A DNA stretch of 19,634 bases from a virus (IMGVR_UViG_3300006226_000014:88804-108437); one strand, 5' to 3'; positions 1-19,600 are shown, counted from the stretch's first letter. Made by a program: numbers and translations. The notes: generated from the sequence alone by a model not told the origin.

Positions 1-735
1 AAGCAACGCCTTTTGAGCACTGTGAACTTGCTTCTCCATAGTATTCAGAACACTTGGTACAACTGGGAATTGTAAGTTGTAGATATCGCCTGTCAATGGG
101 AGTCTGCTGCCTGAACCAATGTCGAGCACTGTCCCACGTCGATCTTTTGTGTCATCTTCTAATGAAGTAAAGATGGGGAGTACATTTCCAGTACCCGTTA
201 GTCGAACTGGTAATTTGCCATCATATCCGTGGTCCCATCCTCGCTTAGCCCCGCCTTTCTCTCGATATGGCGCTATTACAGTTCGTAGATAAGACAGTTC
301 ATTCCAAACATACTTTTTAGATTTAGTAAGCATAGCACACTCTTCTCTGAGCGACTTGAGTTTGTTCTTAGAAGACCGACCTTTTGATCTAGCATAGACT
401 AAATGATTCTCAAGATGGTTGATGAATTTGGTGTTGTCGATAGATTGTAAGATTTCCTTAATACGAGTGAAGCCATAAAAGAACCAACATGTACCATCTG
501 GAATGAGCACTCTGTGCATTTCATTGAGCCAGTCTGTCATGAAGGAGACATACTCATTAGAAGTGAACTTATCCCAGTCCTGCTTAGTCTTAGATGAATG
601 GGCATTAGAATAGCCTATAGCATAGGGAGGATCCGAGACACAGAGATGAATAGATTCATCTTTTAAGGAGATATCTTTGTAATTTGCATTGTGTAATATA
701 AGCTTAGATTGATTGATTTGTAAAGTAGTTGCCAT
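1..735 (-). CDS. DNA N6-adenine/N4-cytosine methyltransferase, beta class (3' end runs off the window)
   Basis: Not in the ORF track; read by hand. ATG at 735, open for 245 codons to position 1: MATTLQINQSKLILHNANYKDISLKDESIHLCVSDPPYAIGY...DWLNEMHRVLIPDGTCWFF...QVHSAQKALL. Catalytic motif IV DPPY is at 622-633, followed by the typical 'E.HRVL.PDG' segment and an HPxQKP-like HSAQKA. Confidence 0.9.
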   Translation of the reverse strand, partial: MATTLQINQSKLILHNANYKDISLKDESIHLCVSDPPYAIGYSNAHSSKTKQDWDKFTSNEYVSFMTDWLNEMHRVLIPDGTCWFFYGFTRIKEILQSIDNTKFINHLENHLVYARSKGRSSKNKLKSLREECAMLTKSKKYVWNELSYLRTVIAPYREKGGAKRGWDHGYDGKLPVRLTGTGNVLPIFTSLEDDTKDRRGTVLDIGSGSRLPLTGDIYNLQFPVVPSVLNTMEKQVHSAQKALL

Positions 736-736
736 T

Positions 737-748
737 ATTATTGAGTTT
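737..748 (-). promoter_or_regulatory. near-consensus class 1 motif (AACTcA-ATAAT) before the methyltransferase
   Basis: Minus strand reads AAACTCA ATAAT A ATG: one mismatch to WACTAA-N-TA-N-T and one extra base before ATG. No SD is present. Confidence 0.4.
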
Positions 749-3117: not shown

Positions 3118-3303
3118 TTAGCCTTTTAGTTTATGCAATACGGTGGCTTTATCACCTTGATCTGCAATACGAATATCTTGACGTTCTTTCAATGCGTCAA
3201 CTTCTTCCCGCGTCATTTGTGAAGATTGTCCGCGATCCGTTACTTCAACTAAATGTTCTTTCTGTTTTAGATTGTCACCATCGACTTCTCTTAATCGTTC
3301 CAT
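3118..3303 (-). CDS. small hypothetical phage protein
   Basis: 61-aa ORF in operon orientation, preceded by the class 1 motif TAACTAA ATATT ATG. Confidence 0.75.
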   Translation of the reverse strand: MERLREVDGDNLKQKEHLVEVTDRGQSSQMTREEVDALKERQDIRIADQGDKATVLHKLKG

Positions 3304-3315
3304 AATATTTAGTTA
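3304..3315 (-). promoter_or_regulatory. class 1 motif WACTAA-N-TA-N-T directly before ATG
   Basis: TAACTAA ATATT ATG(3303). Confidence 0.6.
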
Positions 3316-3797
3316 CCAACTTCTTTTTTCAATATGCGACGTTCTTTAGCTTTTTCTGGATCAATTTCACCATATATAAGTCGAAGTAATCTGTTCATCA
3401 TAACAGAAGCATTGTCTTCTTGTCGTTCGTCCCATTCATTCCATCCAAAATAGACTTGGTCATTATCATTCAATGCATCAAAAGTACATTGCAAATCATC
3501 ATGATCGTCACATCTAATAAGGCCAAGCTTCCACATATTCTCATGTCTAAATCGAATAACAAGTACTGGCACAGATGCAATTTCTAAGTTAGTCATAATA
3601 GCTGCTGCAATAGTATCGTTTGGCTTATATGTGTATGTTGCTAAGTTATCAACCAAGTTGCCAAAGATATCCTTCTTGTTTAGTAGTGCCATACATTTAG
3701 GACATGAGGCTGTCTTAATCATTACAAAATAGACTGTTTCGTCTATGTTACCTCCCTTTGTCCAAATGTCCAATTCTTGTGTCGTTAGTTCTTTCAT
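3309..3797 (-). CDS. thioredoxin-fold protein (CxxC)
   Basis: VYFVMIKTASCPKC (beta strand then CxxC) and a later ASVPVLVI cis-Pro-like motif. SD GAGGAG upstream. Confidence 0.65.
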   Translation of the reverse strand: MKELTTQELDIWTKGGNIDETVYFVMIKTASCPKCMALLNKKDIFGNLVDNLATYTYKPNDTIAAAIMTNLEIASVPVLVIRFRHENMWKLGLIRCDDHDDLQCTFDALNDNDQVYFGWNEWDERQEDNASVMMNRLLRLIYGEIDPEKAKERRILKKEVGN

Positions 3798-3806
3798 TTT
3801 TCTCCT

Positions 3807-4223
3807 CTATAAGTTTTGTAATTCAGGAAAGTCAGGATCTGGTGGTTGCCAATCGATTCCTAATTTATATCCGCGCGTAAAACCACGCTTATATGCTTCT
3901 TTGATCTCTTTGTTAGTTTGTTCATTGTAATCTTTTCTGAACTGCTCTTTAGCTGCTTCTTCTCCAGCATCAAATCCTTCAGCCCACTTATCATGGGCTA
4001 TTCTATCGTATGTGTTAACTTCAAATTCTTCCTTTTCAGCTTCGAAAGCATCTTCTAATTGTTCTTTGAAGTAATCTGCTATGTAACTGTCATCTTTTAG
4101 TCGTGATAAGATAAGATCTACAAGTTCATCTCGTGGACCTTGTAGTTGCAATCCTAATTCATATTTGATACAAAATTGATCTATATCATATAGAAATCTA
4201 GGATCTAAATCTCGATAAGTCAT
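3807..4223 (-). CDS. hypothetical acidic protein with GxxxG repeats
   Basis: 138 aa containing EGFDAG and RGFTRGYKLG. Start overlaps the HNH stop (ATGA). Confidence 0.7.
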   Translation of the reverse strand: MTYRDLDPRFLYDIDQFCIKYELGLQLQGPRDELVDLILSRLKDDSYIADYFKEQLEDAFEAEKEEFEVNTYDRIAHDKWAEGFDAGEEAAKEQFRKDYNEQTNKEIKEAYKRGFTRGYKLGIDWQPPDPDFPELQNL

Positions 4224-4921
4224 ATATCTATATTAACTCTCCCGGGTAAAAATCCCTCTGGGCAAATTTCTCTTCTAATATTTTTAATACCATTGTTAAA
4301 CCAATATAAATTTTTTGTAGTAGCTTTTAATCCTTTATTCCAGGTTTGTTTTCCTCGATTTCCACTTCCTAATTTTTCTTTAACTTCTTTTCTTTGCATT
4401 GCTAATATTGTTTTTTCTTTAATATATTGTTTTTGTTCTTCTGTTCTTTTTTGTCCTCTTAATTGTTTAGATCTTTTTTCTATAGAATCTTTAGATAAAA
4501 TAATACTTTGTCCTTTTTTAAAACCATATATGTTTCCTTTCATTCTTTCTTTAATTATTTTTTGATGTTCAATACGAAGTTTTTCATATAATTTTCCATT
4601 CATATAGATAAGACCATTCTTATTAATACATTGTCTTTTAAATGCACATAACATTTGATAATAGTGTTCTTTATTTTGTTCATAAATTTTACATAAAAGA
4701 TAACCAGCTAAAAAATGTTCTCTACCGGTTAATGGAATATAATTTTCTTCAGATTCATTTCCTCCTGCACATTTTGGAATAATATGATGAAATTCAAAAT
4801 ATCTATTATCTCCATTTCGTTTCCATTTTTTCCATTCTTTTTTATTTTTTGGTCTATTACCTTTTTGAATTTCTTGTTTTATATAATTAACATAATTTTC
4901 ATAATTTTGTTTGTAATTCAT
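4220..4921 (-). CDS. free-standing HNH homing endonuclease with NUMOD3-like C-terminal DNA-binding repeats
   Basis: YFEFHHIIPKCAGGNESEENYIPLTGREHFLAG HNH-type motif; basic repeats SKQLRGQKRTEEQK and GKQTWNKGLK; terminal WFNNG...PEGFLPGR. More AT-rich than its neighbours. Confidence 0.85.
   Translation of the reverse strand: MNYKQNYENYVNYIKQEIQKGNRPKNKKEWKKWKRNGDNRYFEFHHIIPKCAGGNESEENYIPLTGREHFLAGYLLCKIYEQNKEHYYQMLCAFKRQCINKNGLIYMNGKLYEKLRIEHQKIIKERMKGNIYGFKKGQSIILSKDSIEKRSKQLRGQKRTEEQKQYIKEKTILAMQRKEVKEKLGSGNRGKQTWNKGLKATTKNLYWFNNGIKNIRREICPEGFLPGRVNIDI
4229..4237 (-). promoter_or_regulatory. class 2 motif GTTAATATA inside the HNH 3' end
   Basis: TAATAT at 4235-4230 puts the predicted +1 on the A of ATG 4223. 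Confidence 0.4.
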
Positions 4922-4940
4922 ATTATTTAGTTATATTAAC
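4922..4940 (-). promoter_or_regulatory. overlapping class 2 and class 1 motifs before the HNH gene
   Basis: Minus strand GTTAATA TAACTAA ATAAT ATG(4921). Confidence 0.55.
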
Positions 4941-4965
4941 TATAATAAGTACAATAACCTTATGC

Positions 4966-6171
4966 CTATCCGCCACCTCTTTGTGTGGCCAAAATTCCTA
5001 CTAGTCCTATGGATTTTAATATAGGATCTAAAGCTGATTGAAGTTTTTCTGCTCTATTAGCTAAAACTGTTGCATCAAGTTGACCTGCGATATCAGTTTT
5101 AACTAAAGATCTTAATAATGAAAAATTATTTAAAACTTCTATTCTTGCCATAGGTCTGGCAATAGTTTCAAGATCTTCATATCTTATATCGTCCCAATTT
5201 CTAGATTCTTTTAACCATTTAAAATTTAAATTTCCGCCAATAGTAGAAAACCCATAACAAAAAAGTTTGCCGTCTATCTTCTTTCGGCTGTACTTTTCTC
5301 GTCGAAAAAAGTTTAAGAAGCCTTGATTAGCTGCCATTTGTAATGGTATAGTTTGCTTAGTATCGAGACCAACATATCCTGGAACTTGCTTACCAATGTA
5401 TCGCACGCCTCGTCCAAACCTTCCACCATATCCCATGCCGCCCATTCCACCATACAACATTTGTTCATTATAGAATGCAAAAGGTGACTGATTACCATTA
5501 GCACCAGCTCCTGCTCCACCTGGAACAGTATAGTATGGCACACAAGCATAAGCGTCTTGTGGAAAAGGTACCATGAATTCAGCACCTTTAGTTATTTGAT
5601 AGCCGGGCTGTTCTTCTATGATAGGCCTAAATGTGAAGTAGCGTTGCATTGCTGGTCGAATGCAGTACTTAATGATCTCGTTCTTAGCTAATTCTGTCTC
5701 AGTGAATAGTACAAATGGAAAACCAATAGCCGTCAATATAGTAAGCAACTCATCGTCATCAATATTGATACAACCATTGTCAACTGTTATAGATTCGTTA
5801 GAGTATGGTATGAAGTCGTTGTTTGGCATAAAGCCGCCGTGCCATTTAGAAGGCAACACAACGAAGTAGGGCACCATTACGCCTTCTAATGCCGTGTATT
5901 CTCCTCGCACATCATCTATCTGCATAACAGACCAGTCTAATGGCATTTTGAACTGGTTGTCTACAACATAAGAATGCGCTACATATATGATGCGATTATG
6001 TAACGGTGCTGCTGAAAGCCAGTCTCCATCAGATGCGTCTATTCGTACAACACTATCTTTAGCGTAAAACTTTGTATGTTTGTTAACTGTCACTTGTCCC
6101 ATTGACCACCAAGTTTGAAGTATCTCCTCGGGATCACATTGGCGCAAATATGAATGGGCGTCTACTGCCAT
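4966..6171 (-). CDS. probable neck/head-completion protein (T4 gp13-like) with an N-terminal extension
   Basis: KNEIIKYCIRPAMQRYFTFRP resembles the gp13 N-terminal helix. C-terminal GQLDATVLANRAEKLQSALD resembles the gp13 'lng..l..eA..e..L' tail. SD TAAGGAG. Confidence 0.5.
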   Translation of the reverse strand: MAVDAHSYLRQCDPEEILQTWWSMGQVTVNKHTKFYAKDSVVRIDASDGDWLSAAPLHNRIIYVAHSYVVDNQFKMPLDWSVMQIDDVRGEYTALEGVMVPYFVVLPSKWHGGFMPNNDFIPYSNESITVDNGCINIDDDELLTILTAIGFPFVLFTETELAKNEIIKYCIRPAMQRYFTFRPIIEEQPGYQITKGAEFMVPFPQDAYACVPYYTVPGGAGAGANGNQSPFAFYNEQMLYGGMGGMGYGGRFGRGVRYIGKQVPGYVGLDTKQTIPLQMAANQGFLNFFRREKYSRKKIDGKLFCYGFSTIGGNLNFKWLKESRNWDDIRYEDLETIARPMARIEVLNNFSLLRSLVKTDIAGQLDATVLANRAEKLQSALDPILKSIGLVGILATQRGGG

Positions 6172-6180
6172 AATCTCTCC

Positions 6181-6426
6181 TTAAGTTGGTATATGATAGT
6201 CAAAGAACTCTACACATTTAGTAATGAGAATCTGAGCTGCTTCTAAATCACCATTGAGTTCCATAAGCTTATATCTAGGTTTGTTGTCGACATAATGTTG
6301 CAACATTAGTTGTTCTGCCATTTTAGTATGGATCAAAGCATTTTTCAGCGCGTCATTTCCAGCAGCAATAGTACTGCGAATTGTTCCATTATGTTCATTA
6401 CCTTCTTCAAAAAGTTCTTCCGTCAT
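6181..6426 (-). CDS. small hypothetical protein
   Basis: 81-aa ORF preceded by the class 1 motif CTACTAA CTAAT ATG. Confidence 0.7.
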   Translation of the reverse strand: MTEELFEEGNEHNGTIRSTIAAGNDALKNALIHTKMAEQLMLQHYVDNKPRYKLMELNGDLEAAQILITKCVEFFDYHIPT

Positions 6427-6438
6427 ATTAGTTAGTAG
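6427..6438 (-). promoter_or_regulatory. class 1 motif
   Basis: CTACTAA CTAAT ATG(6426). Confidence 0.55.
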
Positions 6439-6739
6439 CAGTAGGTATGCCTCGTTCTATGCAGTCATTACAATACCAATCATCATTCGGCTGTGCTACA
6501 CCTTTCTTAGTTTGTCGACATATATCACAAACACGTTCTATATTTGGATCAGTTAGTTCTCTAATGATCTTAATCGAGTTGTCTAAATTGTCAAAAAGTG
6601 AGTCACTGCCAAACTTATCATATAGCCAGTCTTTAAGTTCTTCAATACGACTAATAGCTTCATCTTTATATGATGACTTAATTTCCCAGGTACCTTCCTT
6701 TAGAGTGCCTTCTTGCAGAATCTTTTCAAATGAGTGCAT
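6428..6739 (-). CDS. small protein with C-terminal C4 zinc finger; possible internal head protein
   Basis: CDIC...YCNDC at the C-terminus. I moved the start from 6769 to 6739 because ATG 6739 overlaps the upstream stop (TAATG) and has GGGTGG upstream, giving the N-terminus MHSFEKILQEGTLKEG. Confidence 0.65.
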   Translation of the reverse strand: MHSFEKILQEGTLKEGTWEIKSSYKDEAISRIEELKDWLYDKFGSDSLFDNLDNSIKIIRELTDPNIERVCDICRQTKKGVAQPNDDWYCNDCIERGIPTATN

Positions 6740-6975
6740 TAACCACCCATTTCGCCAGTTTGTCGCCAATCATCATCATAGCTACTATTTAGTCTCATTG
6801 CTGCTAAAACGGCACCAACTGCTGCGTCTCTTGCTATGTCTAATTCTGCTTCAGAATAAAAGTTTTTATCAGCATAAGTTTCTTCAACCCAATCTAAAGC
6901 ATATTTTTCCCAATAGTCTTTATCAATAGATTCTTTGAGCTTAGCTGATTCGTATAGTTTTTCATATGTATTCAT
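6739..6975 (-). CDS. small acidic protein; possible internal head protein
   Basis: 78 aa with N-terminus MNTYEKLYESAKLKES, preceded by the class 1 motif. Confidence 0.7.
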   Translation of the reverse strand: MNTYEKLYESAKLKESIDKDYWEKYALDWVEETYADKNFYSEAELDIARDAAVGAVLAAMRLNSSYDDDWRQTGEMGG

Positions 6976-6987
6976 AATAGTTAGTAC
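6976..6987 (-). promoter_or_regulatory. class 1 motif
   Basis: GTACTAA CTATT ATG(6975), immediately after the terminator U tract. Confidence 0.55.
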
Positions 6988-6990
6988 AAC

Positions 6991-7021
6991 AAAAAAGCTC
7001 AGACCGTGAGACCTGAGCTTT
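6991..7021 (-). terminator. intrinsic terminator
   Basis: Perfect 9-bp inverted repeat AAAGCTCAG/CTGAGCTTT (6994-7002 / 7013-7021), extended by G-U, U-G and C-G pairs around a UCAC loop, ending in U6. Confidence 0.85.
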
Positions 7022-7061
7022 ATTAGGGAGGTAAGAGATGTAGATTATGTTGCCATAACCT
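6991..7061 (-). ncRNA. candidate 71-nt small RNA with an anti-RBS seed
   Basis: Extended -10 (TG-T-TAATAT) predicts +1 at A7061, the first base of the 8-bp hairpin AGGUUAUG-GCAA-CAUAAUCU. A 20-nt linker ACAUCUCUUACCUCCCUAAU follows, then the terminator. Confidence 0.55.
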
Positions 7062-7066
7062 TGTAT

Positions 7067-7076
7067 TATATTAACA
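7067..7076 (-). promoter_or_regulatory. class 2 promoter motif (extended -10)
   Basis: TGTTAATATA(AT) directly after the stop codon of 7080-8081. Confidence 0.55.
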
Positions 7077-7079
7077 TCT

Positions 7080-8081
7080 TTATTTTATTTTTCTAGTAAA
7101 ACTTAGATAAGTCTTACTGTGATCTCCTACCCACTTGAGTGAGAGCTGTCTTTCTTCTGAAATATCCCAAGGATTATTTTGAGATATACCCGAAACAACC
7201 ACATTAAATCCGATAGGTGTTGGTGTACATCTTAAAGTCATTCCAACATCTTCTGGTGTTTGTGTTACAGATAAATCAGCATTAAGATTAAGAATAGTAT
7301 CATCACCATCTTGAGTAATTTCTCTAATAACAAAGTGATAGTCAGGATTATCATATGAGAATAATATGACGCGGCCTTGATATTCTCCGCCCCATTGTCC
7401 GATAAAGAGGTCCATATGCCAACCAGTACCGAGTTCGAGGAAACGACCATTTCTAAGTTCTGGAACAAAATTATATCTAGCTTGATATTCTATAAGTGAA
7501 GAATAAGCATCATATACTTCGATTGCTGTTACTAATTCTTTTGATAGGCATTGATCGCCTTTATACCAACCATCGAACTCCCAGCCCCATGGTTCATAAG
7601 CTGTGAATATAACTTCAGTACCATTCTTAACTTCAGCATGTGCTGGTGTTGCATATGCTCCTGAGTTGATAGCATCAGCTGGTACAATAACTACATTAAA
7701 GCCAGTCATTCTTACTGGAATAGTTACTGCGATCTTTCCTTTGATGAACTTAATAGTTGTTGGTTCTTCAATATCTTCACCAAAAACGCCAGGCATTGTG
7801 AGAATCTTAGCAGCCTCTTTTATGCTGTCGGCTACTACTGAAACTGGAAAGTCACCATCTGGTGTTGTGAAATAGCCAGTGTATTGATTAAGGTGCTTAA
7901 CCTCTTGTGGATGATGCTTGTGGTCATGCTTAATTGTGAACTGTTCCATGTGATTAGGATCAGCTATTGGTTGACCAGGAATATGAAAGCCAGGAGGTCC
8001 AGGAAAGTGGGCCCCTCTTGCTGGTCCAGGTCCACCATGTCCAACAAAACCAGCATCTGACGGATGTCTTTTATCTGCCAT
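7080..8081 (-). CDS. probable virion surface/decoration protein with a divergent InlB B-repeat-like domain
   Basis: VKNGTEVIFTAYEPWGWEFDGWYKG...VTAIEV...IEYQARY matches the 'G..V.l.A.p..Gy.F.gW' repeat pattern. His/Gly/Pro-rich N-terminus. SD TAAGGAG. Confidence 0.5.
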   Translation of the reverse strand: MADKRHPSDAGFVGHGGPGPARGAHFPGPPGFHIPGQPIADPNHMEQFTIKHDHKHHPQEVKHLNQYTGYFTTPDGDFPVSVVADSIKEAAKILTMPGVFGEDIEEPTTIKFIKGKIAVTIPVRMTGFNVVIVPADAINSGAYATPAHAEVKNGTEVIFTAYEPWGWEFDGWYKGDQCLSKELVTAIEVYDAYSSLIEYQARYNFVPELRNGRFLELGTGWHMDLFIGQWGGEYQGRVILFSYDNPDYHFVIREITQDGDDTILNLNADLSVTQTPEDVGMTLRCTPTPIGFNVVVSGISQNNPWDISEERQLSLKWVGDHSKTYLSFTRKIK

Positions 8082-8098
8082 TGTAATTATCTCCTTAT

Positions 8099-8110
8099 GA
8101 TATTTAGTAG
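8099..8110 (-). promoter_or_regulatory. class 1 motif with an SD-containing leader
   Basis: CTACTAA ATATC | ATAAGGAGATAATTACAATG. Confidence 0.5.
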
Positions 8111-8111
8111 T

Positions 8112-8175
8112 CTTGCAATAAGAGACTACTTATTGTAAATTAAGTTCTAATTGTAATAGAAAATCTTATTGTAAA
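8112..8175. repeat. array of 11-bp operator/iteron-like repeats
   Basis: CTTATTGTAAA (8129), CTAATTGTAAT (8147) and CTTATTGTAAA (8165) at an exact 18-bp period, plus an inverted copy CTTATTGCAAG (8122-8112). Confidence 0.75.
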
Positions 8176-8200
8176 AGTAGGCCTTCACTTTTAGCAACTC

Positions 8201-8212
8201 TAACTAATTACT
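8201..8212 (+). promoter_or_regulatory. class 1 motif
   Basis: TAACTAA TTACT ATG(8213). Confidence 0.55.
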
Positions 8213-8503
8213 ATGAAGTCAATAAATAGAAGACGACAGCAAATAGTTGACTTAAATACTGGTAAGACATATATCAACGAATCAATGGCTGAGAAAGATA
8301 TCGGCTTATCTCGATATTTCATACACAAAAGTCTCACTGAGAAAATACCAGTAAAAGGTCAAATGTTTGCTTACTATTCTTATAGTATGGACACAGTAGC
8401 AATGAAGAACCACTATATGCAAAACTATAACGAAGTAATAACAAGGAGTAAAAAATGGCAGAACTTAACCCGGTTGACGGCTCAGGCATCAACCCTAACT
8501 TAG
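8213..8503 (+). CDS. NUMOD1/IENR1-like HTH DNA-binding protein without a nuclease domain
   Basis: IVDLNTGKTYINESMAEKDIGLSRYFIHKSL...KGQMFAY fits the pattern I.D..TG..Y.S...A....G.S...I........kG..F.Y. Confidence 0.6.
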   Translation: MKSINRRRQQIVDLNTGKTYINESMAEKDIGLSRYFIHKSLTEKIPVKGQMFAYYSYSMDTVAMKNHYMQNYNEVITRSKKWQNLTRLTAQASTLT

Positions 8504-9570
8504 ACAAAATCCAAAAAGCGAGGCAAGATTTTGATGCCAAACTAACAATGCCAGCTGGATATGTTGAGGTTGTCTTATCAACAAGAGGATTAGTAGGAGC
8601 ACCCGCTCGCTTCTATATTAGAAACTTTAGCCCAGAAGATTTGATGAAGTTGGGGCTATCTGATAAGGAAGACGTCCCTCTCGAACTTATCAAAGTATTA
8701 GACAGTCTTATATACAACCCAGACAATAACCCAATGTTATCAGTCAAGAACTTTCACGAGAAAGAAGTTATTGAACTATTGCTCTTCTTATATGAGACAT
8801 TCTATACGACCATCTTTCCTAATCAGGAATGGATCTTAACTGATGAAGACTGGGAGTTCTTGAAGCAACAACATGGTGGAGAAGACAGCGACGAATTCAG
8901 GGCACAAGAACGCGCTATTAAGAATAAGACATGGAAGCCAGTGTTTGACATTGACATATCAGCATTAGATTACTATGAAATTCCAGATGATATCAAGCTT
9001 AAGGCTCGTATTGATCGTAAGTATTCTAATCAAAACTTTTCGGCAACTTTCACACTGCCAAAATTTGGTGACTTCATCACACTTAAGTACTTCATAGACA
9101 GCATCTACAAAGAAGAAGACAAAAAGTTTGCTCGTATAGGAGAGACATATAAGTTCAGAAAAGAAGCTGAGGAAAAGTTGATGAATGGTGAAAAGATCAA
9201 CTTAGCGTCTATTCCTAATGTACCTAAAGCTGATTTAGATAAGTTCAAAGAGTATGAAGTCAATAAGTCATTGTTTGCCATTACAGCATCTAAAGCATTG
9301 TATCTAGACGAATTTGATGGTGAAAACGTATCACAATGGCCGTTAGAGAAAAAGCTCGAGTTAGCAAAAGATGCTCGATTAGACTATTCAACGTTTAAGA
9401 TGGTACAGGACCATTTTAATGAACTTAAATTTGGGCTAAAGGAGGATATAACCGTACGCGACCCCATCTTAGGAGAAGTCGTTACGCGGAAGTACACATT
9501 TCAACTCATTGATCTACTCACGGCCATTAGAGATACAGGAGCTTCTGAAACTACTCTATCTTTTGTCTAG
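8455..9570 (+). CDS. probable baseplate-hub/tail assembly chaperone (T4 gp26-like)
   Basis: FYIRNFSPEDLMKL...LIKVLDSLI...VKNFHEKEVIELLLFL and FTLPKFGD resemble gp26-family motifs. SD AAGGAG. Confidence 0.5.
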   Translation: MAELNPVDGSGINPNLDKIQKARQDFDAKLTMPAGYVEVVLSTRGLVGAPARFYIRNFSPEDLMKLGLSDKEDVPLELIKVLDSLIYNPDNNPMLSVKNFHEKEVIELLLFLYETFYTTIFPNQEWILTDEDWEFLKQQHGGEDSDEFRAQERAIKNKTWKPVFDIDISALDYYEIPDDIKLKARIDRKYSNQNFSATFTLPKFGDFITLKYFIDSIYKEEDKKFARIGETYKFRKEAEEKLMNGEKINLASIPNVPKADLDKFKEYEVNKSLFAITASKALYLDEFDGENVSQWPLEKKLELAKDARLDYSTFKMVQDHFNELKFGLKEDITVRDPILGEVVTRKYTFQLIDLLTAIRDTGASETTLSFV

Positions 9571-9805
9571 AGACTGTGGATTTGGTTACGACGAAATGAT
9601 GCATATGCCCACACACATATTGTTGGGCTTATGGAATGCTAAGCGTGGTGTTCTAGAATCAGAGAACGAAGAGCAAAAGAAACAACAACAAACTGGAGCA
9701 GGAACAGCTGTACCGTCTATGAGCCAAATGATGGGGCAAGCTAAATCAATGACACCTAAAGTGCCATCAATGCCAAACCCGGCTAGCTTTAGGCTTCCAC
9801 GGTAG
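9509..9805 (+). CDS. small gp51-like / chaperone C-terminal extension ORF
   Basis: LLYLLSRDCGFGYDEMMHMP...LESENEEQKKQQQ resembles the short ORFs that follow gp26/G-type chaperones. TTG start with no SD; overlaps the upstream ORF by 62 nt. Confidence 0.45.
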   Translation: MIYSRPLEIQELLKLLYLLSRDCGFGYDEMMHMPTHILLGLWNAKRGVLESENEEQKKQQQTGAGTAVPSMSQMMGQAKSMTPKVPSMPNPASFRLPR

Positions 9806-10259
9806 CTTCGGCTATCTTATCTTTAAGTTGAACCTTTTCAGCTAAGAACTGCAGTGCTTGTAGCCCCACCAAAATATCGGTGGGGGTTGCAGCATTTAGC
9901 TCTTTGATGTTGTTCTGTGTGTAGTGCGGTGTTTGTTCTTTTTGCTTTTGTGCAAGTTCATTCTGCTGTGCTGCTGTCAATAGCTGCATTGTTGGTGATA
10001 CGAGCTTAGAGATTAAGTCGTTCTTATTAGTAGAGGCACTAGTTGCTAAGGCTATCAATTCAGATGCTTTCATATCTGGCAGTTTAGCTATGATAGCGTT
10101 CTTAATCGCCTGTTGATAGACATCTTCTTGTCTAGCCATTTCAAATGTATCATTGAGAAACTTGCCCAAAGAATCTTCAATCAGTTTGACAGAAGTTGTC
10201 TTGGTGGCTAAGTCGTGTATTTGTTCTTCAGTTGGAACTACGTCTGTAATATCACTCAT
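9789..10259 (-). CDS. hypothetical helical protein
   Basis: 156-aa ORF preceded by the class 1 motif TAACTAA CTAAT ATG. Confidence 0.75.
   Translation of the reverse strand: MSDITDVVPTEEQIHDLATKTTSVKLIEDSLGKFLNDTFEMARQEDVYQQAIKNAIIAKLPDMKASELIALATSASTNKNDLISKLVSPTMQLLTAAQQNELAQKQKEQTPHYTQNNIKELNAATPTDILVGLQALQFLAEKVQLKDKIAEATVEA
9801..9824 (+). terminator. C(UUCG)G hairpin, probable terminator
   Basis: GGTAGC TTCG GCTATC followed by TTATCTTT, at the convergent overlap of 9509-9805 and 9789-10259. Confidence 0.5.
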
Positions 10260-10281
10260 ATTAGTTAGTTAATCTATAATC
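10260..10281. promoter_or_regulatory. 22-bp bidirectional promoter region
   Basis: Class 1 motif on the minus strand (10271-10260) overlaps the class 2-like GTTAATCTA on the plus strand (10268-10276). Confidence 0.5.
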
Positions 10282-10614
10282 ATGATGGAAGCTTTTGATT
10301 TTGAGTTGCAAAAGATAGCGCAAAAGATGCGCTACGACTCTTTAGATGCTTATGTTGATACTAGTGAGTTGTTCCAATTAGTTGTTATGGAATTAGCAGA
10401 TAGATTCACTGGTAAGATGGTACATATTGCTATTAGAGAGTTTAAGGAAAGTTTAAGTCACTATATGGATCGCTTCAATCAAAAATGCAATATGTTCCAA
10501 TCAGAAGATGGGACTTTCAAAGTTGAACAAACAGATAGAAGCATAACTATACAGTTTAACTTTCATGTCAACGAATATCAGAACAATACTTTCAACATAC
10601 GTATTTCTATATAA
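10282..10614 (+). CDS. hypothetical protein, possibly gp25/GPW-like baseplate wedge subunit
   Basis: 110 aa with C-terminal alternating beta strands (KVEQTDRSITIQFNFHV...FNIRISI), directly upstream of the giant baseplate-like gene. Confidence 0.35.
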   Translation: MMEAFDFELQKIAQKMRYDSLDAYVDTSELFQLVVMELADRFTGKMVHIAIREFKESLSHYMDRFNQKCNMFQSEDGTFKVEQTDRSITIQFNFHVNEYQNNTFNIRISI

Positions 10615-10624
10615 GTTCAGTCTT

Positions 10625-10636
10625 TAACTAATTATA
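10625..10636 (+). promoter_or_regulatory. class 1 motif
   Basis: TAACTAA TTATA TAAG ATG(10641). Confidence 0.5.
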
Positions 10637-10640
10637 TAAG

Positions 10641-13600
10641 ATGGAACGATTCCCTACAAATGCCAAGTACTATCAATCGGTATTAGACACATACACATCA
10701 TCAGATGAGTTCAATGCTAACAAACGAGTTCACTATAATAATGAGATACCACCAGTCGACTTATACGATATGGTACACTCCAAACTCAAGAATGATATGT
10801 GGAAGTGGTTCTTAGGCTCATCATCTATTGCATATGATATCCCTTACAATATAGCCACAGACGCTCTCGAATACTTTGATGAAGACGGCATTATAGTTCA
10901 GCCATCTATTGCTAAATATGTCAATGGAGTTAGAGCGCCAGATTTTGGTCCAGTTCCTAAGCTAACGTACAACCCTAACATTAAGCCAACTTATCAAAGA
11001 ATGTTAGATCGAGCTAATTCTATAACAGACCCTTATGATAAGCAGCGCGCATTAGATGAAGCAGCTAACTACATCAAGGACTTCTACTATAATGAGAGAG
11101 TAGATGATTACTATGAGATTACTGTTCCAGAATACCATCGTGTACAATTAGAAGGCGTCTTTTTACCAGAGGTTGACTTCTTGCTTCATGAAGGATATCG
11201 TTATCTTAGTGTACTATATCCAGATCATCCAAACTTTACAGAGATCTTAACAACAAATGAGGTCAACGATGAGATCATTCAAGCAGCTGCTGTTATCCAT
11301 TATGTGCCTGACTGTATCTTTTTTGACTGGTTAGTAACAGAATACGAACAAGGTGTAGACTATTACGACTTACCTAGAGCCTTCAAAGAAGAAGCTCTTA
11401 TGATGAAGATTCGTAACTTGACTAATCATGCATTTAGACGAAAGTTGTATGGTGCAAAGACTGGCTATATGCAGTTTGGTAGTGAGATACTACAACACAT
11501 GTCTGTTCATATAGTTGCGGAGTATTTGCCATTCAAACCGTACTTAAGAATAGACGAAACTATTCGTAACAACAATGAACATAAGAACTTTAAGTGGTAC
11601 AACAACATATATCACAAGCCAGACATTTTAGATGACCGCGCCATCAATAAGTTTGACACTCTATACAGAAAGCAGTTCCGCTTATTAGATTTTGACAACT
11701 GGTCATATGACTATGTCAACACCTACAAAGATCCGGTGGAGATATTTGGTACAGCTTATCCGACGCCTTATTCTATGTCCGACATATATGAATACCCCAA
11801 CACTCGCAATACTGTGCTACAAGTACCAATGACAATAATGGAAGATTTCTATAGTGGTCAAAAAGTAACTGTAAGCGGGCAACCTTGCTTCATTAACTAT
11901 ATGATCAAAGAGAATGCTTACAGAGTGAGTGTCAATCTTTCATATGCTGGCGATGAATTAGATGACCACTATTGTAGTACTTATCAGCTTATAGATGCTA
12001 TCACACATATCAATATCACTAGTCGTATTGATCCAATCTATGTTGACTTTCAAATTCACAGAGGAGTAGAACATACTCTACAACGCGTTTTAGATGCTGA
12101 ACCCGATACTTATGATATGTTAGCATTTGAGTCAGCTGTTCATGAACCTAATCCGCTAACTCGATCAATTAAGGAGTTGTACAAACTCATACCTGACCAT
12201 ATAGATGGTAAGTTCACGCTTAACCCGCATCAGAATGGAACATTGTACATGCCCGCTAATCAGTTCTTAACACTATATGCTGACTACTTAAATGTTACAA
12301 TAGATAGAACTGACTACGAAAAGCCAGTTTTACAATTCAGTGCAACAGCGATGGCAGAAGATGGCTACGTACATCAGAACGATTTAATAGTTAACGACCT
12401 AGTCAACAGCACTTACATCTCAGAAATAGTTGGCATAGAGAACGGTGTCTTTAAGTTCACCGTTACTGAGGCTGATAGAATGTTCGCGTCTCCAACCGGA
12501 GACAGATTAGGTCTTAGCAGCATAGAAGCAATCAATGCAAAAGAAGATGGTGAGTATGTACTAGTATTTGAATTCAGTAAGCAGAACTTACCAGAGCTGA
12601 CTGGAAAGAAAGTCGTGCTAATGGGTAAGCCAATCTTTTCTACAACTGAGCATCCTGACAAAGACAACCAATATCAAGTGAATGGTGTGACATTCTATGT
12701 GTCAGCAATTCCATTTGTTAAGTCACACGAAATGCTCAAATGTCTATATGTATCATACGAACAAACTGCATTAGATAAGTTCAAACTATTAGAAACAATC
12801 TTTAAGAATGGCTCTTCATTGAAAGAGGGACATATCTATAAGACAAACTATGCTCGATATGAAAAAGCCACTAACGCTTATGCCACATTTGTTCCAGCGC
12901 TTAAGACTTTGATAGCACAGAACAAGGCTGGGCAGGTGCATCCTAATGATACATATTGGAATAGAGTCAAAACAGCAGCTACTAATTTGATCGATGCATA
13001 TGATTTAGCACCAGTTAAGCAACGACAACTTAGAGAGTACTATAATGATTTTGTTGCTACAAATGATAGCACTGCAGCATTACGTGATCCTGATAAGATA
13101 GAGGCCAACTGTCTCGCTCTGTATGATATGTTTGAAGAGTACAACAGTGTGTACTTCCCACTATTGTTCTGTGAGATATCTATTGACTTAGATAGAGAGT
13201 ACTACACATCATATAGATCATCCAATGATGAGACAAGACGGACGCTTAACGCGATAGAACGACTTGATGTTGTTCTTGATACTATGCTTCCAAATAGGAA
13301 CTTACTACTAAAACCAGCAACAAATGATTTCTACAATGTCAACTTAACTGAAGAGTTCGCCTATTCACCATTAGTTCAATTAGATACTTTGAGCAATGTA
13401 CTATCAATTCATCTTGACAAATATGGTGAAGGCATAACACATACAAAAGTACTCGAACTCGGCACTGACGGTTTGCTTAATGAGTACACATTCGGCTCGC
13501 TTAATACAGCTTCTATTTCGAGTAACAATGAAGATGTTAAGTTAGATGATCCACAATACTATTATTCAAATGGCAAAGAGTACATAGAACGCTATTACTT

Positions 13601-16600
13601 AGGAACACAGGAGTATCTTTGTCTAAATAAAGATATCTCATTCGCTATAAATGCTAGCTCTGAACCTAAGAAGTTCTCATATGCAACTATTGACTTCCTC
13701 GACTTATTTATGCCTGATGATAAGGTCAACAATGTAGTTGGGGTTGTTCAACAAACACACGAAGTTGAGATAAGAAGCATTTGCACAGCTGGAAGTAACA
13801 TTATAGATTTTGTCGATGAAGAATCTATATGGCGAATGGCAGCGTTATCAACTGGTGATCAAGTTATTGGTAAGACAATAGAGAATGACACTTTCATCGA
13901 GGTTATCAACATTGATAATCATTATGTCACGCTTAACAAAGCACTTCATACTTCAGGCGATTTTGTATTGACATATCTTTGTAAGATCAACATATTTGCC
14001 AAAGACGTTTATGTTGACTTCTTCAAGTATCGTTATGAACTTTCACGCAATAAGTTGATCGATACTGGCTCAGTTGTTAGTCACATATTCAACAAAGAAC
14101 GATATGACTGTTGGCCGAGCGAAACTTACCCAATGAGTGCAGTGGACGTTAGCAAGTTCAAAGAGAATCTCCTACGTAACTTACGTAATCAAAGTATCTA
14201 TAAGCAGTTCTTTAACCGACACGTTTGGGACTTACATAATGATGGCATTGATCCAACAGCTGGATATACTATGTCATCTGTCATACATGTCAACCAAGGT
14301 CTTTTCTTAGAAGCTAATGCATTTAAAACTTTCAAAGAAACGAACCCAGCTAAAAAGGCTATGCTAACTGATCCATTAGGAGTATTTGGATTCACAAATG
14401 ATAGAGAGTACATAATGAAGAAAGAAGTACTCGACTATTTTCAGAACTATCTTTATGAACTTTCTAGAGCATCTGATAATGTTAACGTTGGTGTAGCTAT
14501 TACTGCGTCAACTAAAGCTGACGGTGAACCAACTATTGATCCAAAGATTGACAGTGTGTTCACAACTTATGGTTGGAACTTCAATACAGTACCATATTAT
14601 GTAGACATTGGTGTTGGTAAATTAGACGATGTTCTAATTCAAAAGATGGAATTTGAAGATCAGCAGTTAGATTATGAAGACAAATCATATTGGAATTACA
14701 GCATTTATGATGATATTCATATGACTAAAGATCGAGATGAACGATGGCAACATGAAACGGACAATATGTCATATGAAGAGTTGCGAGAACAAGGTATTGA
14801 TTTAGAAAAAGCTGATCGTTCTGTATGGTTTGCTAAGCAGTTCACAGTGAAAGATGGTGATGGAATCCCACCTATTTATAGCATACATCGCCCAATAATG
14901 CGCGCTTATATTGGTGAATATGAGGTACAAAAGTTCATTAAGTTTGATGGTTATCTTGAGAAGAACTTCACAACAGTGCAATTTAGTATCATCAAGCAGG
15001 TCTTTAAGAACTTGAAGAAAGATAATGAAGTCCCTCTCAATGTAGTCAATAAGCGCTTTTTTGAACTTAACATATTACGTAATGTTATTGTCAATAATAA
15101 GAAAGATTTAGATACAGATACTGATCTTATTCGTGATGGCCAAGAAATTACTTCTATTTATTTAGGTGAGTGGAGACCAGGTTCTAGATTAGTTGGCGGA
15201 CAATACTATATCAACTGGCCAGCAATTCCAGTAGATATGACACCTAATCGTATTTACTATTATTCTATTGCTGAACACATACAATTAGTGTCTGTTATTG
15301 ATGATGTGAAATTTGAAGAAAAAACTGGTGTCCTTCCCAATATAGCATTTGAAGCTGGAACTATCATAGTTGTCGAAAATGGTAGATGGCAAGTTAAAGA
15401 TTTTGTATTCGCCGGATTATATGGTACGAGTTCTGAACTTAATAAGATCATTATACCACCAAATGATGATGATACATTTGTCAATATTTCTAATTCTTAT
15501 CCAATTGAAAAACGAGATGACGGGGCGGAATACACATTACTGCATATGTTGCTTGTTAAGCTTCTAATTAATTTAGGTTTATTCAAAGGTAACTTACAGA
15601 ATGTATGTGAATATACGGTAGAACAACTTGAAGAAATGTATCAAAATGTTTTAGATTATAGAGATACAGAATTTGATGATGATGGTAACATTATTCATCA
15701 AGAAAATATAGAGGCCATTAAGACAGAAATACTAGGTTCTGGTTATATAGAAAATAGTCCAACAGCACTTTTATTTCCAGAAACTTTTAAGAATAAATAT
15801 AATGTTAATACACATAACATATATTGGTTTATGTACACTAAAGGTCGTGATGCACAATATGGTCTTTTAGAACGTTGTCAAATAATGCCGGGGCAATGTA
15901 TTGCTTTATTATATGTAAATAATAAATTTAGAATCTCGTTACTTAATGAAAATAAATTATTATTCTTAATCAATTCAGATAAAAAGATCAGAATCAATAC
16001 TGAAGAATATCTCACATTTATTGGACAATATGGCTATACAGAAAAAAGAAATATTTTCTTATTTGAAAAAGTTGATCAATATGTTAACACATTAGATTTA
16101 CGATATAAGAATTTACTTAGGGGTTCAGTTGATGTTAATATAACAGCAGTTCCGCATTTTAAAGTTGATGGTTGGGAATATAATAATGATGGAATAACTC
16201 TTAAAGATGAAATAAGAAAAAATCCATTTGACATAACAGAAGATAATATCTATTATGATAGCATTAATAATAAATTATATTCATATAATACTGATAGTAA
16301 AACTCATGAAAAAACTAAATTTGCTATTGTTCAAGAAGATAACAAATACTTCAAGAACTTATTGTACATATATGGACAATATCAACAATTAGGTGCTACT
16401 ATCAATAAAGAATTTGTTGAACAAGGTGTTCTTACTCCAATTCCAGGTGTACCTTTCAATGTTGACAATGCTAGTCTATTTGATCGTATTCTTGAAATAG
16501 AACAAATCAACATTCGTTCACAGTATAATATCAATTTAGAACCAACATTATTCTCTTCATATTGCAATATAGAAGGTATTCTTAAAGGCATTCATGTTAC

Positions 16601-19600
16601 TGAAGATGGTAACAAATATCTCAGTGTTAATTATAAGTATGACAAAGAACCAATATTGACTACTAATAAGCTTAAGTTCTCTACTGAAGTTCAAAAACTA
16701 TTACCAATACGAAATGGCTTAAATTGGGCTAGTGAAGATATTGACTTTACAAATGCTAAATGGCCTGATGGTGAAAAAGTAGACCCACCTTTAGTACAGA
16801 GTGTTAAAGTTACTAAATCTATTACAGCAGATAATGATGAATCAACACTTAAGTACTATAAGAACCTATTAGTATTAGAAGGCGAAGTTGATACAGCTCA
16901 ACCTAACAAAATTGATTTTAGTAGAAATACTAAGTTGCAAGATGCTTTAAGTTATGTTAAGCGCGGAGATTCAATAGTAGATATTGTTGGAATATCAAGT
17001 TTAAGTTCTAAATCCTATAACAGATATGTTGTAAGTGCTACTAAAAATCTAAATGCAATTAAGTTTGTAGATTATAGAAATAACATTTTAATAATTGCAA
17101 CAAATACTGGTTTAGGTGCTGTGTACAAACGTACATTAGATGGATTAGAAGATACTATATATGTTGAAGATAAGAATATTGTTAATTATGAATTTCCCGG
17201 ACCATTAAATACGAAATATATCTATAATCAACTTAATTCGTTATCTTGGGATGAAAAGAAAGGTATTTGGATATTGGGAGTAAGTAATGGAGTTTATGAA
17301 AGTAATACTTTAGAATCAGAGTTATTATCTGTAACAATAAGTACTAATGAAACTGATATTACTGATATACGATTAGCTAAAATTTATGATAGTCCTGGAC
17401 AAAACATTAATGCCTATCAGTTTGTTGCTATTTTAGATAAAGATACTGGTGATGATAGAAAAAACAATTATAAAACAGTATTAACTAGAGATGTTGCCTT
17501 TCAAGAAATAAGTATTAGTGGTAATATAGATGTTATAACTAATAATTTATTAAATAGCATTAATATAGATAATTCAGATTATAGAAATTGGGAAAGTAAA
17601 GAACTTAATCCAGATACAGGATTAAACTACACTAGCCTTGATCCATTACCAGACCCTAATTATAATTATAGAGGATTTGGTTTTAATAAATCTGGTGAAT
17701 ATATTTCTAAAACCCCAATTATAATAGAAAAAGATAGTTATAAAATTCTTAATTTTACTATTAAAAAGGTAAATCCTGCAATTTCAAATTCTAGTTCAAT
17801 TTCTATTGGTGTTGATAATAAAGATATTGGATATACAGAATTTGAAAATAAAATAGTAATTATTGATCAAATTTGGATATTTGATAAAGAAGTACAAAAA
17901 TGGGTTGTTACGCTTAATTCTGAAGATTTCCCTAATTTTATATCCAATTATAACAATACTGAATATACTAATGTTACAACTTATTTAGTTGGTTCAGAGT
18001 TTGGTAAAAATAAACACGATGTTGCAGGAGAATTTTTATGGAAATTACCACGTGCAGAAGTCTCTGAAAATACAATAGTTGCTGCTATAGTTTGTACAGA
18101 AGATGTTAATGAAGTTGATAAACTTAAACCGCACTCAATAAATCTTAAAATAACTATATCTGATGATGGTGGACAATTTAATATCTATAATTTAACAGTA
18201 AATAGTCCAGAAAAAATTATTTATAATTATGATGTAAGTGACCCACCTTCTGAAATAAATATTCGTCATTTACAACCTGAAACTTATATAGAAGGACCAT
18301 ATAATCCATTAATTTATAATAATGAAATAAATTATATTCCATATTTAGTAGAAAACGTTAATGATAAATTAAGAGCAAAAAAGTGGTCAGTTTATAACTC
18401 ATTAGGACACCAAGCAATAATTATTGGTTCAACAATTTTCTTTTATACTCCAACAAATTATTATGGTGAAGAAACAGATTTAGATTTTGATGAAATAAGA
18501 ACTACCTTTGATCCAGCTTATTTTACTGAAGATATAATAAATAAAGGAAAAGATGCTTTAAACCCAATTGGCTTAACTGAAGAATATCATTGGAAAAGAG
18601 CTGAATTACCATCTTCAATAAATAATACATATCAATTATTTAATGAAATGACATTAAAACAGGCTTATGAATTAGTATTGTTACAACGAGAGTTAACATT
18701 AGACGAAATTAGTAAATTACTTAATCAGACAAGACCCCCTATAAGTTTGCCAATTTCTGATGGCACTTATGCTATTAGTCTTTCTGATCCTGAAGAACAT
18801 CGAGTTTATAAAGCTATGTATAATTGGATTATTTTACATAATGTTCAATTTTATGAAAATGATGAAGTAATTCCTATTGAAATTAGAGAACCAGGAATAC
18901 AATTTTATAAAACTGAAAAAGGAAATATACCACAATTTTATACAGATTATAATAAAGATGAAAAAGATGCTCCTCATGTTAAGTGGACATCTGCACAAGA
19001 GACTAAGTTTGAATTAGGAAATATTGTTTCAGTATACTTAACACATCAAATGTATTTAAGATATTTAGCAGATTATTATTCTGTTATTTGTGGTGCTACT
19101 CGATATGTTCATTATTTTGGTCCAGAAGAACTTAAAGATGTACAATTGACTAATACTCAATTAATTATTCAAACTGCTAATGATGATATTATTTCATTTC
19201 CAATAGAAAAAGCAACATCAAGAGATGCTATTGAAAACTATAATAATTGGCATGTGTCAAATATTGCACCAGAATATATTTTTATTGATCAAAGAGCAAC
19301 TTATGAGCAACGAACTGTTTGTTATGATAATAAATATTATAATTTAAAATCTTTTCCAACTCAAAAAACTACAAAAGCATTTACATTATTAGAAAAATAT
19401 ATTGAAAATAATATACAAATATATGCTGGATATATAGAAGCAAATGATAATGTTAGAGATATTTATAATGAATTTATAAAGAGTGGTCCAAATAATGAAA
19501 CTATATTAAATAATTTCAAATATATTATAGATTTATTTCCAAATAGATTAGGACCTAATAATATTATACCATCTTTTACTGAAGAAGATCCTTTAATAGT

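Follow-up and report, generated by a model that had tools for sequence, protein, structure and literature searches.

What does a short sequence do that ends exactly where a start codon begins? This question is raised by a 19,634-nt stretch of viral DNA (IMGVR_UViG_3300006226_000014:88804-108437; the whole stretch is referred to as the window), in which the initial annotation had described six genes with ACTAA placed five nucleotides before ATG. All six ACTAA-N5-ATG sites are indeed present, and they open reading frames (ORFs) of 61-233 codons. We refer to the underlying 10-bp element, ACTAA-h-TA-h-T (h = A, C or T, never G; positions -10 to -1 relative to ATG), as the class C box. Its distribution is best explained if it is a compact phage-specific promoter that gives leaderless mRNAs, and we consider this explanation probable. 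This part of the initial annotation is the one best supported by comparative evidence, namely by the distribution of leader lengths, by orthologs, by divergent junctions and by terminators, whereas the machinery that it had added to the promoter is not supported.

The window comprises bases 88804-108437 of a 108,437-bp IMG/VR virus record with a CheckV completeness of 33%. This source record has 34% GC and belongs to a contractile-tailed phage as judged by baseplate and sheath-like matches. Most of its genes carry strong Shine-Dalgarno (SD) sites of the AAGGAG type. Three related records were found via a conserved 755-aa protein and were all fetched in full: G001, a complete genome (100%) of 329,018 bp with direct terminal repeats and about 440 proteins, G002 (261 kb) and G003 (199 kb). 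The relatives are the IMG/VR UViGs 3300010167_000010, 3300010049_000010 and 3300006226_001702. These and the source record are referred to as the four genomes. Genes were called with a simple, crude custom caller. The length of the complete relative G001 indicates that the source record, and with it the window, is a fragment of an uncultured giant phage of gut/rumen type and about 330 kb. No cultured relatives were found at the DNA level or for the 755-aa protein, and matches of the DNA polymerase were distant only (at most 27% identity). Searches against PHROG and Pfam left most box-bearing genes, and nearly all proteins of the source record, without annotation.

Sequence and occurrence of the class C box

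At the 133 sites of the four genomes where the box abuts ATG, the core reads A-10 C-9 T-8 A-7 A-6 h-5 T-4 A-3 h-2 T-1. C-9 and T-1 are invariant, and G was found at neither degenerate position in any of the 133 sites. The invariance of T-1 is not imposed by the search pattern, as ACTAA.TA..ATG also gives 22 sites in the 108-kb record. Outside the core, T-12 and A-11 are weak preferences found in only about 55% of the sites each, and the W that the initial annotation had placed at -11 is only such a preference (A 55%, T 30%). Together with an invariable A at -7, these frequencies bear out its statement that the box is not a sigma-70 TAnnnT element. Further upstream, nothing is conserved from -50 to -13 in the 133 sites, and no -35 element is present.

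The box is strongly over-represented. The window holds eight copies of ACTAANNNNNATG where 1.65 are expected, and each of 200 shuffles gave fewer than eight. Over the full 108 kb of the record, there are 33 occurrences of ACTAA.TA.T (10.2 +/- 3.0 expected under a second-order Markov model), and the box with an adjoining ATG occurs 22 times as against 0.28 expected under the same type of model, with a simulated maximum of 2. All 22 box-abutted ATGs open ORFs, of 61-1148 codons, and an in-frame stop usually lies 3-12 codons upstream. Similarly, 42 of the 43 box-abutted ATGs in G001 open real ORFs. The start codons of about one sixth of the phage genes adjoin a class C box.

Such a sequence might in principle arise with no dedicated signal, as a by-product of tight gene junctions at which TAA stops in several frames meet an AT-rich stretch. 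TAA-C-TAA-C-TAA-T closes all three frames, and 12 of the 22 copies in the source record overlap the stop codon of the upstream gene. However, a same-strand gene upstream is lacking for 10 of the 21 box genes called here and for 21 of 43 in G001, and a by-product accounts neither for the invariance of C-9 and T-1 in 133 sites nor for 22 occurrences where 0.28 are expected. Moreover, the box is kept at orthologs while the flanks diverge. An origin as a mere by-product is already contradicted by the copies in divergent spacers, and we regard it as extremely improbable.

Leaders, orthologs and transcription units

The four genomes contain 215 exact copies of the box. Leader length was counted from the last base of the box to the next start codon that opens an ORF of 50 codons or more. 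It is 0 nt in 129 copies, 1-5 nt in 18, 6-10 nt in none and 11-40 nt in 31. An SD is present in 28 of the 31 copies with 11-40-nt leaders, often beginning at +1 to +3 (for example, ACTAATTATT-AAGGAG-N8-ATG). Leaders are either absent or just long enough for an SD and a spacer, and the box therefore appears to mark a fixed mRNA 5' end rather than to be a signal that has to touch AUG. The base directly after the box is A in 172 of the 215 copies (80%).

These leaders bear directly on the possibility that the box is a translation signal in RNA, which either replaces the SD or acts as a translational operator by the AUG (compare T4 RegA), the mRNAs starting elsewhere. In SD-less genes the box does abut ATG at a fixed position, and having no G it cannot itself be an SD. 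The 31 exact copies lying 11-40 nt upstream of the start are difficult to reconcile with this role. Because 28 of them are accompanied by an ordinary SD, the box is neither needed beside AUG nor a substitute for the SD. In addition, orthologs switch between an abutting box and a box followed by leader and SD, and the enrichment at divergent junctions and behind terminators described below is a property of transcription units. A translation signal is consequently judged improbable.

Comparison of this genome with G001 revealed 12 gene pairs in which the box abuts ATG in both genomes, the encoded proteins being 35-79% identical and the flanks diverged. In two further ortholog pairs the box abuts ATG in one genome only; its counterpart is a one-mismatch box with leader and SD in the first pair and a box with a 2-nt leader in the second. 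In L008, ACTAACTATT-AAGGAATAATA-ATG has a divergent class C box as its neighbour, and the three other genomes have a back-to-back abutting pair at this place, orthology being judged by position. The abutting starts are ATG in 63 of 64 cases, compared with 274 of 316 SD-led starts (p = 0.004). Leaderless translation requires AUG, and the near-exclusive use of ATG at abutting starts fits this requirement.

The arrangement of the box genes points to transcription initiation. Divergent junctions account for 10 of 21 box genes in this genome and for 21 of 43 in G001 (48-49%), compared with 16 of 109 and 75 of 396 other genes (15-19%; Fisher p = 0.0016 and 4.6e-5, respectively). Several divergent spacers measure only 22-30 bp, and two boxes placed back to back are all that they hold. 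In addition, about ten boxes lie no more than 16 nt from a strong terminator hairpin with a T-run.

A third explanation is that the box is an RNA processing site, at which a phage or host endoribonuclease cuts long transcripts just before the A. Processing would produce the same distribution of leader lengths and the same fixed register, and would explain the copies inside operons. The divergent spacers of 22-30 bp, however, would then need unmarked promoters inside the opposite genes, and little upstream RNA is expected at the boxes directly behind strong terminators. No known RNA family in Rfam matches the window, and we know of no nuclease of this specificity. Processing appears to us just as improbable as the translation signal.

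If the class C box is a leaderless promoter, transcription would start on the base after T-1, which is mostly A, from a clade-specific box that has no -35 element. T-1/A+1 is the pyrimidine-purine step favoured by RNA polymerases for initiation, and we infer that an RNA polymerase (RNAP) reads the box on DNA with this A as +1. Where the A belongs to ATG, the mRNA would be leaderless and an SD would not be needed; elsewhere, a minimal leader would be formed, often opening directly with AAGGAG. Class C boxes precede the tail-fibre operon, giant ORFs, and the baseplate and sheath region, and are also found at many small genes of unknown function and at a homing endonuclease gene. As they precede virion-type genes, class C is probably a late class, an assignment drawn from a few annotatable genes.

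Several points weigh against a leaderless promoter. Twelve of the 22 copies lie inside operons with the upstream stop codon within the box, where translational coupling could also explain expression, and the transcript start itself is placed from sequence. Conservation right up to -1 is unusual for sigma-type promoters, and searches with sequence profiles recognised no polymerase, sigma factor or gp55 in the complete relative G001. Furthermore, the CTAAhTA word in the register of T4 and of its relative Aeh1 would put the start at +4, beyond ATG. Finally, expression from such mRNAs would depend on the capacity of the host for leaderless translation.

Sites in the window and other probable promoter classes

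Four of the six abutting sites lie in the first 7 kb of the window on the minus strand. The box ACTAAATATT at 3304-3313 and the ATG at 3301-3303 (3301..3313) open a 61-codon gene (3118..3303), and the upstream gene 3309..3797 ends with the TAA inside this box. In G001, the ortholog of the 61-codon gene has a one-mismatch box, ACTAATTAAA, and then a leader with AGGAG. The box ACTAAATAAT (4919..4931 with ATG) belongs to a 233-codon gene (4220..4921) of low GC that encodes a homing endonuclease (phrog_655, E 1e-27) and so carries its own class C box. This gene is inserted between conserved genes, and its best match in G001 is at a different locus. The box ACTAACTAAT (6424..6436 with ATG) abuts an 81-codon gene (6181..6426) and contains the stop codon (6428-6430) of the gene upstream. 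The box ACTAACTATT (6976-6985; 6973..6985 with ATG) abuts a 78-codon gene (6739..6975). An intrinsic terminator on the minus strand (6994..7021), with a 12-bp stem, a 4-nt loop and a T-run, ends the 7080..8081 unit 8 nt before this box. At 6737-6741 on the minus strand, a TAATG stop-start overlap and a GGGTGG SD indicate that gene 6428..6739 is translationally coupled to 6739..6975; the TTG start at 6769 in the ORF list is probably wrong.

The other two sites lie at divergent junctions. The box ACTAATTACT (8203..8215 with ATG, plus strand) abuts a 96-codon gene (8213..8503), the first of a divergent unit. A second ACTAACTAAT box (10257..10269 with ATG, minus strand) abuts a 156-codon gene (9789..10259), whose ortholog in G001 has an exact box with a 2-nt leader. 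The divergent spacer in which the latter box lies (10260-10281) is only 22 bp long, and its class C box and a box of class B, described below, overlap by 2 nt.

The initial annotation had listed three more copies with short leaders, of which two are as described. The one-mismatch box ACTAATTATA (10627-10636, plus strand) is followed by the 4-nt leader TAAG and ATG (10627..10643), and the one-mismatch box ACTCAATAAT (737-746, minus strand) by a 1-nt leader and the ATG of a DNA methyltransferase gene (733..746; gene 1..735). The third copy, the one-mismatch box ACTAAATATC (8099-8108, minus strand), by contrast has a 17-nt leader (8082..8108) with AAGGAG at 8091-8096, which leads to the ATG at 8081 of a 333-codon gene (7080..8081). 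The gene behind ACTAATTATA is a giant ORF on the plus strand (10641..19634) that runs off the window and encodes at least 2998 aa. It corresponds to a 4673-residue open frame in G001, where the ortholog has an exact box with a 1-nt leader. The giant ORFs have no sequence match in Pfam or PDB, and the one in the window is also without a PHROG match.

The spacer between 7080..8081 (minus strand) and 8213..8503 (plus strand) contains, at 8110-8190, two direct copies of CTTATTGTAAA, a third ATTGTAA and one inverted TTGCAATAAG. The orthologous spacer of G001 (187015-187135) retains the same ATTGTAA array, and ATTGTAA is found in a few spacers only. The array looks like a putative operator array for a DNA-binding regulator. 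Elsewhere in the window, an MFS_2 sugar-transporter gene (754-2037, minus strand; Pfam E 1e-38) forms a stretch of about 20% GC within this phage of 34% GC. It is probably a recently acquired auxiliary gene. Its best genome match (23% identity) is in a metagenome-assembled genome of Eubacterium, which is the sole hint to the host; the record flagged as 'provirus' carries phage-like ORFs over its entire length.

Further promoter classes were obtained from k-mer enrichment upstream of G001 genes and site inspection. Class A, TTGAAC-N17-TATAAT, precedes a leader with GTAAGGGAGA; in this genome, one copy lies ahead of a block of small SD-led genes at 31-41 kb. By its sequence, class A is an ordinary sigma-70-type promoter, which would mean that the phage uses the host RNAP. 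Class B has the form aGTTAAT-N8-ATG at 19 sites of G001 and aGTTAAT-N9-ATG at 12 (31 in total), including both halves of the DNA polymerase. With the A of ATG as +1, TAATnT falls at -12 to -7 and G at -14, which is the canonical register of a -10 and an extended -10 element. Class B also occurs with SD-bearing leaders and is kept at orthologs: in three pairs, both genomes have it next to ATG. We regard it as a probable leaderless promoter of the middle class. Class B serves as an internal calibration, indicating that start-codon-fused promoters are a habit of this clade and that the +1 assumed for class C is right. No swaps between classes B and C were observed between orthologs, which suggests separate regulons. 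In the window, class B boxes of the form GTTAAT-N8-ATG stand at 10268..10284 (plus strand; TAATCT at -12 to -7, G-14), before a 110-codon gene (10282..10614), and at 4221..4237 (minus strand), before a 138-codon gene (3807..4223).

The replicative polymerase detected is of family A and not the T4-type family B gp43. The other recognisable genes of G001 (L012, L013, L019, L024 and L026) include those for a eukaryotic-type topoisomerase IB, a GroEL-like chaperonin and a Cache-HAMP methyl-accepting chemotaxis protein. G001 also encodes a Ro60/TROVE-like vWA protein, a CCA-adding/poly(A) polymerase with an HD domain, an SNF2 helicase and rIIA. A 1859-aa ORF of G003, orthologous to G001 92331-97130, contains long low-complexity inserts rich in Trp, Gly, Arg and Tyr (GWGWGW... 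runs), which were seen in this one ortholog only.

The reader of the box and known promoter systems

What, then, reads the box? The initial annotation had taken the motif to point to a phage-encoded sigma factor or RNAP, and our searches lend no support to such machinery: no multisubunit or T7-like RNAP, gp55 or sigma factor was detected in G001. For multisubunit RNAP, PF00623 and PF00562 gave no match in G001, G002 or G003 and matched all control genomes, and the D[FY]DGD motif is absent from every ORF of at least 40 aa in G001. For RNAPs of the T7 and N4 types, the best E reached by phmmer --max was 0.78, the queries being T7 RNAP and the N4 RNAPII subunits; PF00940 had no match either, but this result is weak because its controls were silent too. 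Two polymerase-like R-x3-K-x7-YG motifs, found in the giant ORF and a 1600-aa ORF of G001, were dropped, as they are not conserved in orthologs.

Searches for specificity factors were likewise negative. For gp55, phrog_234 and phrog_12791 had no match at E <= 10 in the four records, one of them 100% complete, and phmmer found nothing. A seven-sequence gp55 HMM run with --max reached a best E of 0.14 without agreement between genomes, and hhalign against 96 conserved families gave probabilities of at most 2.2%. The sigma-70 regions 2, 4 and 4_2 produced sub-threshold noise only. For gp45, the best phmmer E was 0.57 in a single-sequence search, which is weak at this distance. No phage bS21 or IF3, either of which might be linked to leaderless translation, was found.

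Our own guess, to which we give a little less than an even chance, is that the box is read by the host RNAP together with a phage specificity factor that these searches did not recognise. A phage RNAP that escaped recognition is a weaker candidate and on balance unlikely. Somewhat less likely again is machinery beyond current profiles, either a new phage RNAP or a new specificity subunit for the host RNAP; this idea is raised by the conservation up to -1, by a register closer to those of the T7 group and AR9 than to sigma or gp55 boxes, and by the lack of any detectable polymerase or sigma factor in a complete genome.

If class C is a leaderless promoter, the start sites and the late regulon of an uncultured clade of phages of about 330 kb would be readable from sequence. 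In the complete relative, this would locate about 80 promoters, of which around half are fused to start codons, and gene starts would be fixed to the base in a genome whose proteins are mostly unannotatable. Leaderless expression under phage direction, for which experimental mapping has so far come from Thermus phages, would extend to giant phages that use strong SD sites for their other genes. Were the machinery new, this whole clade would, with class B taken together, express about one sixth of its genes leaderless in an SD-using host, which would amount to phage control of the mode of translation initiation. The questions raised are what reads a 10-bp box that reaches to -1, and whether leaderless initiation by the host ribosome is promoted by the phage. 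With its reader identified, the compact box may serve as a minimal orthogonal promoter.

Among known systems, the late promoters of T4 resemble the box in wording. They carry TATAAATA at -13 to -6, with the start 5-6 nt downstream, and are read by gp55, which acts with gp33 and the gp45 clamp; the late box of the T4-like phage Aeh1 is CTAAATA, starting at -12 (PMC1524935). Class C shares with them a short A/T-rich word without a -35 element before virion genes, and aCTAAaTA is nearly the same word. It differs in ending 2 nt before the A of ATG, not 5, so that its register is 3 nt closer to the start. The resemblance of TAA-N-TA to the gp55 box, noted in the initial annotation, therefore holds for the word, which is the CTAAATA of Aeh1, but not for the register, and no gp55 accompanies it.

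Could the box nevertheless be a T4-type late promoter of the ordinary kind, at which the host RNAP with a gp55-like sigma uses the T4 register? ACTAAaTA differs from TATAAATA in the first two bases only and contains the Aeh1 late box, there is no -35 element, tail-fibre and baseplate genes follow the box, and rIIA is among the T4-like traits of these phages. However, a start at +4 would omit the ATG of every abutted ORF and cut into an SD that begins at +1 to +3. A is not favoured at the middle position of the word, where C and T also occur, no gp55 was found, and the single-sequence phmmer search found no gp45. Purine bias was considered as support for a start at +4 and rejected, as the 92% of purines there is hardly higher than the 81% in SD-led genes. 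A T4-type promoter is accordingly even less probable than RNA processing or a translation signal.

The late promoters of the jumbo phage AR9 have the consensus A-11 ACA-N6-T-1 A/G+1 (PMC7598289, PMC5312081), which the initial annotation had given correctly. If the A of ATG is taken as +1, A-10, C-9, T-1 and A+1 coincide with class C, and A-11 is preferred. Four or five of the six specified AR9 positions would thus be shared; -8 is T and not A. Both elements span about 12 bp, lack a -35 element and have specified bases at -1/+1. The differences are that AR9 has beta and beta' genes, none of which were detected here, and that its late mRNA leaders are 26-491 nt long (PMC5312081). AR9 also requires uracil-containing DNA in the template strand, a feature that an assembled sequence does not display. 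The late consensus of phiKZ is T-3 A-2 T-1 G+1, and its likeness to class C lies in the letters TATG, which overlap the start site. A start on this G would, however, remove the AUG, and no genes for a non-virion RNAP were detected here. A differential RNA-sequencing map of early phiKZ infection contains no leaderless transcript among the early transcripts mapped.

A further likeness is to the T7 group. The T7 promoter core is ACTCACTATA (-10 to -1) with G+1, as read from the annotated phi1.1A promoter. Class C is identical to it in register at -10, -9, -8, -6, -4 and -3 (six of the eight fixed positions) and compatible at -5 and -2, and in both the conservation is contiguous up to the start site. 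The chance of such a match is estimated at p ~0.01 before correction for the several promoter types compared. The two differ at -7, -1 and +1, class C has no conserved part at -17 to -11, and no gene for a T7- or N4-like RNAP was found. In its conservation up to -1, class C looks more like promoters of single-subunit or AR9-type RNAPs than like those read with sigma factors or gp55.

The closest experimentally mapped system is that of the Thermus phages phiYS40 and Lalka27a, with class C being known from sequence alone. These phages produce leaderless middle and late transcripts whose 5' ends have been mapped. Phage-specific boxes of the -10 type adjoin their ORFs, and their host RNAP is presumed to be altered by a phage factor of unknown identity. 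Like the phages studied here, they are large, and their non-early genes carry short phage-specific boxes without a recognisable -35 element. The box-abutted genes described above show the corresponding features, as the box lies directly next to the ORF, an SD is lacking and AUG is strongly preferred. The late promoters of Lalka27a differ in having TAGGGT and a C at -25. In class C, moreover, conservation runs to -1, and the host uses strong SD sites, whereas leaderless mRNAs are common in Thermus anyway. Compared with these systems, the promoter proposed here would be new in its box, in its phage clade, in its SD-using host and in the presence of two promoter classes fused to start codons.

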